Origin: a virus
Lineage: Duplodnaviria; Heunggongvirae; Uroviricota; Caudoviricetes
IMG/VR virus record: IMGVR_UViG_2740892431_000017
Length of the DNA: 11,298 nt
Direction: 5' to 3' (one strand)
Part shown: positions 1,804 through 2,997 of the stretch, piece after piece
How positions within the stretch are numbered: the stretch's first letter is position 1
How the letters are laid out: each line of letters opens with the position of its first letter
Made by a program: the position numbers and the translations under genes
Notes under the pieces: generated by a model
Seen by the model: the letters and a program-made list of their open reading frames with translations, nothing else
Told to the model about the DNA's origin: nothing
The model's database searches: none

Positions 1804-2997
1804 TCAGTGTGCCACTTCAAACATCAACCTACGCTCCCCAAGATGTTCCGCCTTATGGATGTAAGCGGCTCGCACAGAGCTACGCTCCTGGTGACTCATC
1901 TGCCGCTCTACCGCATCCCTCGACCATAATCCCGACTCAATCAACGAACTACAAGCCATCGTCCTGAAGCCATGCCCACAAACCTCGACCTTCGTGTCAT
2001 ACCCCATTACGCGCAAAGCCTTGTTCACCGTATTCTCACTCATCGGCTTACGTGGATCGTGATCGCCCACAAAAATCAGCTCTCAATTTCCGCTCATGCT
2101 TTTGATCTTTTCCAAAATACTTAGGGCCTGCCGCGACAAAGGTACAAGGTGTGGTGTCCGCATCTTCGAGCCACGCTGAGAATGCTTGACTCCTTCCAGT
2201 TGCTCACGCTCACCTGGGATTGTCCACATAGCCGTTTCAAAATCTACTTCTGACCAGCGGGCAAAATGCAGCTCGCTCGAACGGATGAAAACCAATAAAG
2301 TGAGTTCAACCGCCAGTCGAGTTAACGGTCTGCCAGAATAGTGATCTATGCGATGAAGTAATTCAGGTATACGGTTCAGTTCAAGAGCTGCACGGTGCTG
2401 TCTTTTCGCCGTAGCAACCGCACCTGCAATCTCTTGCGCGGGGTTGTAGTCGATTAAGCCGCTCTGAACGGCAAAGCGCATAATCGCGGTAGTACGCTGC
2501 TGTAAACGGGCGGCAACTTCGAGCCGCCCGGATGACTCGACTGCTTTAATGGGTACAAGAAGATCCCGCGTCTTCAGTTCCGCAATGTTCCGCTTACCGA
2601 TAGCAGTAAAGAGATTATCCTCCAGACTTTTCAAAACACGAGCGCTATGCGATGCCGACCACTTCTGATTGCTGGCGTGCCAGTCTCTGGCGACTACTTC
2701 AAACGTTATCGCCTCTTGTTCCTGTTCTACCTTAACAGCTTTCTTGTTTTCACTGGGATCGACACCATTAGCTAAAAGCTTACGAGCCTCATCCCGGCGT
2801 GCCCTGGCATCCGCCAACGACACTTCGGGGTATTTCCCCAATGCCAGCATCTTCTCTTTACCGCCAAAGCGATAACGTAGCCGCCAGTATTTGGAGCCGT
2901 TAGGGTGAACCAGCAAAACCATGCCTTCACCGTCGGTCAGCTTATAGGCTTTTGCTTCAGGCTTAGCCGAACGAACCTTCACATCACTCAGAGCCAT
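1804..2997 (-). pseudogene. int: P4-type tyrosine integrase, inactivated by an in-frame TGA and 3-prime truncation at the IS911-like terminus
   Basis: ATG at 2997-2995 with AAGGA Shine-Dalgarno; product MALSDVKVRSAKPEAKAYKLTDGEGMVLLVHPNGSKYWRLRYRFGGKEK... is typical of P4-family integrases. In-frame TGA at 2083-2085 between ...KSMSGN and ELIFVGDHDPRKPMSENTVNKALRVMGYDTKVEVCGHGFRTMA...[17 protein letters not shown]. The frame then runs into the IS terminus (FEVAH-stop at 1804-1806), losing roughly the last 25 codons. Confidence 0.85.

Follow-up and report, generated by a model that had tools for sequence, protein, structure and literature searches.

The integrase gene adjoining a P4-like satellite in the 11,298-nucleotide stretch of viral DNA analyzed here (IMG/VR record IMGVR_UViG_2740892431_000017, hereinafter the window) in all likelihood belongs to an older island at the leuX tRNA-Leu gene, where it has decayed, rather than to the satellite. 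The window is a tandem array comprised of a leuX-side satellite, a hybrid att junction, a dead island integrase, and a set of IS scars, with the following features:

1-67, minus strand: distal part of the truncating IS3-family element, continuing left of the window (an IS600-family transposase pseudogene in relatives)
68-1288, minus strand: complete IS30 (1,221 bp; inverted repeats 56-93 and 1263-1300) inserted in the IS3-family element
1289-1528, minus strand: IS911-family orfA segment (99.2% identity to loci that carry the annotation "IS3-like element IS911 family transposase")
1529-1731, plus strand: 203-bp piece from the interior of another IS3-family element, inverted relative to the IS911-family element and seen as an indel against NZ_OZ547117.1
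1732-1819, minus strand: IS911-family 5' end with its left inverted repeat TGAAGTGGCACACTGAA (1819-1803), supplying (F)EVAH and a stop at 1804-1806
1820-2997, minus strand: integrase pseudogene (IntB-like, leuX-island type), codons 1-392, annotated as a pseudogene in RefSeq relatives
2083-2085, minus strand: in-frame TGA at codon 305 (tca on the plus strand)
2998-3195, minus strand: int-side att arm of the older island, upstream of the pseudogene and identical up to the core to the satellite-free NZ_CP106756.1
3196-3214, minus strand: degenerate att core (copy of the leuX 3' end), GAGTCCGTCCTTC-GCACCA; satellite attR and hybrid junction with the island
3215-3761, minus strand: satellite P arm with P4-type arm repeats and crr, from the P4 alignment
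3762-10781, both strands: P4-like satellite body, from homology to P4
3762-6095, minus strand: alpha, in the satellite body
7546-7633, minus strand: C4 antisense RNA (Rfam, 76 bits, above the gathering score)
7741-7818, minus strand: isrK (Rfam, 72 bits, above the gathering score)
7890-8156, minus strand: vis/ORF88, in the satellite body
10014-10586, plus strand: psu, in the satellite body
10952-11274, minus strand: 3' part of a satellite cargo gene (DUF8370/DUF8371) in the psu-int hotspot, from relatives
11275-11298, plus strand: IS5-type terminus after CTAG in the cargo gene, where the window diverges from NZ_OZ547117.1 and ends

Organization of the leuX locus and the satellite

To the right of the core the satellite is oriented as P4-like prophages normally are when integrated. 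The satellite body additionally contains ORF106, ORF151, epsilon, the CI RNA/immunity region, sid, and delta, and its joined cos ends lie at ~10750/10751, with window 10751-10781 corresponding to P4 1-31. In a blastn comparison window 3195-10750 aligns with P4 4077-11624 at 97.4% identity over 7,558 nt with 4 gaps, in agreement with the statement in the original prediction that the genes from alpha to psu look intact. The C4 match presumably corresponds to the CI immunity RNA of P4, in keeping with the immunity region of the satellite being intact.

The placement of the satellite relative to leuX is apparent from complete genomes. NZ_OZ547117.1, with 99.9% identity to window 1-11274, shows from the leuX side the order ahr, leuX, an intact 418-aa integrase, the DUF8370 cargo, psu, delta, and sid, and further on alpha, the integrase pseudogene, IS elements, and the grp island; the same layout recurs in strains STEC435 and EJN001 and in two further assemblies. 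The intact integrase at the psu/cargo end of these near-identical genomes lies next to leuX and is 92% identical to P4 Int. The original prediction had itself taken an intact int copy elsewhere in the same genome as counting against it, and such a copy is present in the closest complete genomes, the window from the source genome ending at the IS5 terminus. Conversely, the satellite-free NZ_CP106756.1 has the same pseudogene immediately adjoining a full leuX, with ahr and yjgR alongside, and with the same TGA, the same FE... IS junction, and the same label ("internal stop; missing C-terminus"), followed by the same IS3-family, IS30, and IS600 annotations as in the relatives of the window; by alignment the two are identical over 2998-3195, i.e., from the core to the int ATG. 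The pseudogene thus occurs identically lesioned with and without the satellite, and therefore the satellite would have been gained or lost here after the lesions arose. Across complete genomes, at least 80% of the query is covered in 3,024 for the leuX/IntB-type-arm junction and in 31 for the satellite/IntB-type-arm junction.

The regions beyond the shared segment are variable. Past the IS scars in NZ_OZ547117.1 (1-7102, left of the window) lies a grp glycyl-radical propanediol utilization microcompartment operon, and other genomes with the same pseudogene carry other island cargo, e.g., DUF2254 together with a BCCT transporter, or, in STEC435, a HerA/kinase cluster. The satellite backbone, too, occurs in more than one setting: an identical 777-aa alpha is found at two sites, sometimes within one genome (GCA_964055605.1), namely at leuX, where it comes with DUF8370 cargo and a 418-aa P4-type Int, and beside smpB, where the cargo is NACHT and a different, 402-aa Int lies at the psu/cargo end. 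These combinations suggest an exchange of the integrase and cargo module on a conserved satellite backbone.

At its right end the window stops within the psu-int interval, a known cargo hotspot (Rousset et al., PMC9122126). Its last 24 nt, GGAAGGTGCGAACAAGTTCCTGAT, constitute an IS5-type terminus, and in locus L012 the same 24-mer precedes a 326-aa DDE_Tnp_1 transposase by 45 nt. IS5 at 11275 is absent from the closest, near-identical genomes, and none of the complete E. coli genomes in the collection searched continues into the IS5 junction. Since the window ends in this terminus, the satellite's own int in the source genome is deduced from the near-identical complete genomes, and is expected to lie beyond the IS5 terminus. 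The window both begins and ends within IS sequence, and we suspect a draft contig that breaks off at repeats on either side.

The att core was found only by alignment on account of its degeneracy: a search for an exact leuX 3' suffix of at least 9 nt in the window returned nothing, and ARAGORN found no tRNA in it. The window and NZ_CP106756.1 diverge inside the core, with GTTTGAGTCCGTCCTTC-GCACCA in the former and GTTCGAGTCCGGCCTTCGGCACCA at leuX in the latter, and relative to the P4 core (4078-4097, GAGTCCGGCCTTCGGCACCA) the attR core shows one substitution and a 1-nt deletion. The loss of one G relative to both leuX and the P4 attP (CCTTC-GCACCA) is seen in three genomes, viz., the window, STEC435, and EJN001, and the window has a further G-to-T change in the core. 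The 1-nt deletion may be native to these satellites or may reflect decay of attR, and a degenerate attR core might reduce excision.

The lesions of the pseudogene have no bearing on the mobility of the satellite, for which its own Int and Vis, and not the pseudogene, would be responsible. The claim of the original prediction that the satellite is immobilized or plasmid-borne accordingly finds no support, the lesions having struck the integrase of the neighboring island. The satellite could nonetheless be immobile for reasons of its own, with the pseudogene still belonging to the island, if a deletion or rearrangement at IS5 took its int and attL, or if the degenerate attR blocks excision. This we consider unlikely: the end of the window in the cargo gene, the want of a complete genome continuing into that junction, and the altered core would all be compatible with it, but the right end is most simply read as a plain IS5 insertion at a CTAG-type target, as is usual for this element, the core deletion is common to the STEC435 and EJN001 junctions, and the presence of the lesioned pseudogene both with and without the satellite implies that the latter was gained or lost after the lesions.

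Ownership of the integrase across the att core

The assignment of the integrase to the satellite followed from gene order, as the arrangement int(-), core, crr, alpha(-) in the window copies the circular P4 map (int 2607-3926, attP core 4078-4097, crr 4291-4590, alpha 4636-6969). This order, with int and alpha on the same strand exactly as in P4, and the P4-family three-domain architecture of the pseudogene (see below) are what could be said for its being the satellite's own integrase, with the satellite consequently immobilized or persisting as a plasmid. However, several lines of evidence render this very unlikely, and the window appears to mimic the P4 map because the alpha/crr end of the satellite (attR) adjoins the integrase end of the older leuX island.

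First, the homology to P4 ends at the core: the match extends from the annotated attP core (4078-4097) to the right cos end, and instead of continuing past the core into int, the 97.4% match stops at window 3195, to the left of which blastn recovers only 233 nt inside int at 73% identity. Second, the pseudogene product shares 58% identity with P4 Int, 79% with K-12 IntB, and 95% with the intact STEC435 homolog, whereas in the relatives the other end of the satellite holds a P4-type Int (leuX-proximal, 92-100% identity with P4 Int). The greater proximity to IntB is that of a leuX-island integrase, as is the location of the gene directly downstream of leuX, reading away from the tRNA, in NZ_CP106756.1 and K-12, where no element is interposed. 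Third, in P4-like elements int adjoins psu (PMC8628076), and the pseudogene, rather than being at the psu/cargo end next to the tRNA (attL), sits beyond the alpha/crr end, across the core. Fourth, its occurrence is not tied to that of the satellite: the same int and arm are found beside leuX in genomes without the satellite, and the satellites with the identical 777-aa alpha at the smpB site lack the pseudogene, there being no integrase beside alpha. Fifth, the flanks in relatives are chromosomal (IS elements and the grp island), and a survey of 11,806 plasmids did not turn up a single P4-like element (PMC8628076), on which grounds plasmid maintenance is rejected.

The arm-type repeats are likewise mismatched across the core. 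The satellite P arm, which also harbors crr (~3409-3708), has P4-type arm repeats GTGGGGGCACAA AAGGGGGCATAT at 3268-3291, identical to P4 4151-4174. The P4-annotated 12-mers, GGGGGCA(T/C), occur in the window on this satellite side only, and in the relatives they are found beside the leuX-proximal int. On the pseudogene side there is instead a different tandem pair of the GCGGGTA type with 12-bp spacing, ATGCGGGTACAA CTGCGGGTATTT, at 3050-3073. Given that its position matches that of the int-side arm repeats of P4 and that it shows the 12-bp spacing, we interpret this pair as probably the arm-type sites of an IntB-type integrase with a specificity distinct from that of P4 Int. RefSeq names a small ORF over the satellite att arm and crr an "integrase" (WP_510002440.1; NZ_OZ547117.1 12017-12325, window ~3213-3521, minus strand); P4 has only a GeneMark hypothetical protein at this site, and the name is probably wrong.

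The pseudogene hence fails every test for being the cognate integrase of the satellite, and the ascription of it to the satellite in the original prediction is not borne out. The rare occurrences of an integrase beside alpha have previously been put down to neighboring mobile elements with their own integrase (PMC8628076).

With the pseudogene assigned to the island, we propose that an older integrative island at E. coli leuX would have possessed its own IntB-type integrase, which would then have been inactivated through an Arg-to-TGA change at codon 305 and the loss of its last 29 codons to an IS911-family insertion, with the latter element itself later being hit by IS30. A P4-like satellite would fill the space between leuX and this island, with its P4-type integrase and cargo at the leuX end (attL) and its alpha/crr end (attR, 3196-3214) abutting the int-side arm of the island, such that the junction of satellite P arm, core, and island P' arm would resemble a P4 attP with int beside alpha. 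We infer the order of these events; arrival of the satellite between leuX and an established island is one possibility, and a later entry of the island at the satellite attR is the other. The island would be fixed unless another recombinase acts on it.

Lesions of the pseudogene and the IS scars beside it

The minus strand of the window from 2997 to 1780 translates as one integrase frame, MALSDV...KSMSGN*ELIFVGDHDPRKP..., up to 1804. The in-frame TGA is confirmed, and comparison with the intact 421-aa homolog of strain STEC435 (locus coordinates 6920-8185) shows that codon 305 is an Arg (CGT) there, with AAC CGT GAG in place of AAT TGA GAG. The final whole codon of int origin is M392 (1822-1824), after which the IS911-family left inverted repeat takes over the frame; the predicted 3' truncation by an IS911-like element, with the frame ending FEVAH-stop, is thus likewise upheld, although its extent, earlier given as ~25 codons, comes to 29 residues by alignment to the intact homolog.

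Pfam searches recover Arm-DNA-bind_3 (PF13356, 9e-30) and Phage_int_M (PF22022, 7.8e-27) in the 304-aa N-terminal fragment, followed by a Phage_integrase domain (PF00589) that is split by the TGA into profile positions 4-82 and 95-170 of 172. This is the domain order of the P4-type integrases, and the placement of the protein in the broad P4 family by the original prediction accordingly holds. Box I Arg239 lies upstream of the TGA, and H342-x-x-R345, H369, and Tyr379 lie downstream; the region around Tyr379 is retained, as had been noted. We take these to be the catalytic residues from their motif positions within the tyrosine integrase family. The TGA parts R239 from the remainder of the R...HxxR...H...Y set, and hence neither fragment of the pseudogene contains a full active site in one polypeptide. 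In the intact protein the Pfam catalytic domain ends at residue 384, with the IS truncation falling just past it, and therefore the TGA is the clearly inactivating lesion. The reading of the gene as doubly inactivated is right, and it belongs to the P4-type tyrosine integrase family as a pseudogene, not as a functional member.

The TGA allele is widespread: its 61-nt context is found exactly in 251 of 5,426 complete E. coli genomes and a 41-nt context exactly in three fetched assemblies, and RefSeq labels the pseudogene in relatives "internal stop; incomplete; missing C-terminus". A sister copy in EJN001 is 99.8% identical with one extra frameshift, and is cut elsewhere (window-equivalent 1894, with Tyr379 lost) beside another IS3-family element, such that the copies show progressive pseudogene decay and not maintenance. 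As both the arm-binding and core-binding domains are intact in the 304-aa product, and given the recurrence of the allele in the complete genomes, one could conceive of this product being kept as a DNA-binding protein at the hybrid att junction or leuX, where it would modulate integration or excision of the P4-like satellite; we regard such a role as highly improbable, the further frameshifts and IS truncations of the sister copies speaking weakly against it. That the TGA is a sequencing or assembly artefact (raised in the original prediction as what might overturn it), or is decoded as selenocysteine or by read-through to give a near full-length integrase, is rejected as practically negligible in probability, since a frame otherwise open on both sides of the stop is all that it has in its favor against the exact 61-nt context in the 251 complete genomes, the lack of any Rfam family matching around the TGA at gathering thresholds, and the decay of the sister copy.

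The truncating element is identified as IS911 by the 99.2% identity of its orfA segment to annotated IS911 loci and by the terminal inverted repeat abutting the int frame (1819). Its terminus begins TGAAGTGG... and its frame starts MKKRNFSA, which we take to be the canonical IS911 end and OrfA start, respectively. The IS30 insertion (transposase 75-1226) is flanked by a 2-bp GT repeat (66-67 and 1289-1290), from which 1-67 and the sequence from 1289 onwards would have been contiguous before IS30 inserted.

The 203-bp fragment at 1529-1731 replaces 5 bp at the start of the IS911 orfA. It is 100% identical to 1801-2003 of locus L008 and has matches in 2,029 genomes, yet none of the near-identical genomes has it at this position; either a genuine rearrangement or an error of assembly could account for it. 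The 124-aa ORF spanning this insert has no exact protein on record, and the exact-protein matches of a 98-aa IS911 fragment are only in IS1-flanked contexts.

Relationship to known elements and implications

The closest counterpart of the pseudogene is K-12 intB (b4271), itself a P4-family integrase pseudogene next to leuX, annotated with the "cryptic prophage PR-Y" in NC_000913.3. In satellite-free relatives the pseudogene shares with intB its position directly downstream of leuX beside ahr, and the two further share 79% amino acid identity, family and domain layout, and their state as pseudogenes with IS elements next to them. They differ in that the K-12 allele is without its N-terminus, whereas the one described here has the TGA at codon 305 and the IS911-family truncation, and in that a P4-like satellite is interposed between the pseudogene of the window and leuX. 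P4 Int (NP_042035) has in common with the pseudogene the Arm-DNA-bind_3, Phage_int_M, and Phage_integrase domains, an att core derived from the leuX 3' end, and the same position relative to that core; however, the two stand at 58% amino acid identity with DNA similarity limited to 73% over 233 nt, the arm repeats are GCGGGTA instead of GGGGGCA, and these satellites have their real P4-type Int in a separate gene at the psu/cargo end. Moura de Sousa and Rocha (PMC8628076) describe rare cases in which an integrase adjoins alpha, and the present arrangement is comparable, but here the neighboring integrase is dead and both elements share the leuX att core. As for the truncating element, its orfA segment is that of IS911, but unlike an intact IS911 this copy is wrecked by IS30 (68-1288) and the 203-bp IS3-family fragment (1529-1731), and its distal half bears the RefSeq name IS600 family as against IS911 for the orfA segment.

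Nothing in this locus is new in kind, in that the pseudogene is already recognized in RefSeq and the tandem configuration is already in the literature (PMC8628076); in biological terms we are dealing with an ordinary island integrase in decay, and K-12 has long had one of this type in its annotation (intB). What it illustrates is that tandem elements at tRNA hot spots yield attP-like junctions, which place the "wrong" integrase beside the replication genes of a satellite. A reading limited to the window can then ascribe the dead integrase of a neighbor to a live satellite and wrongly call the latter immobilized. The correct boundary of the satellite is the att core, from 3196 rightwards, and such correct delimitation has consequences for how satellites are counted, how their mobility is predicted, and how cargo in the psu-int hotspot is assigned.
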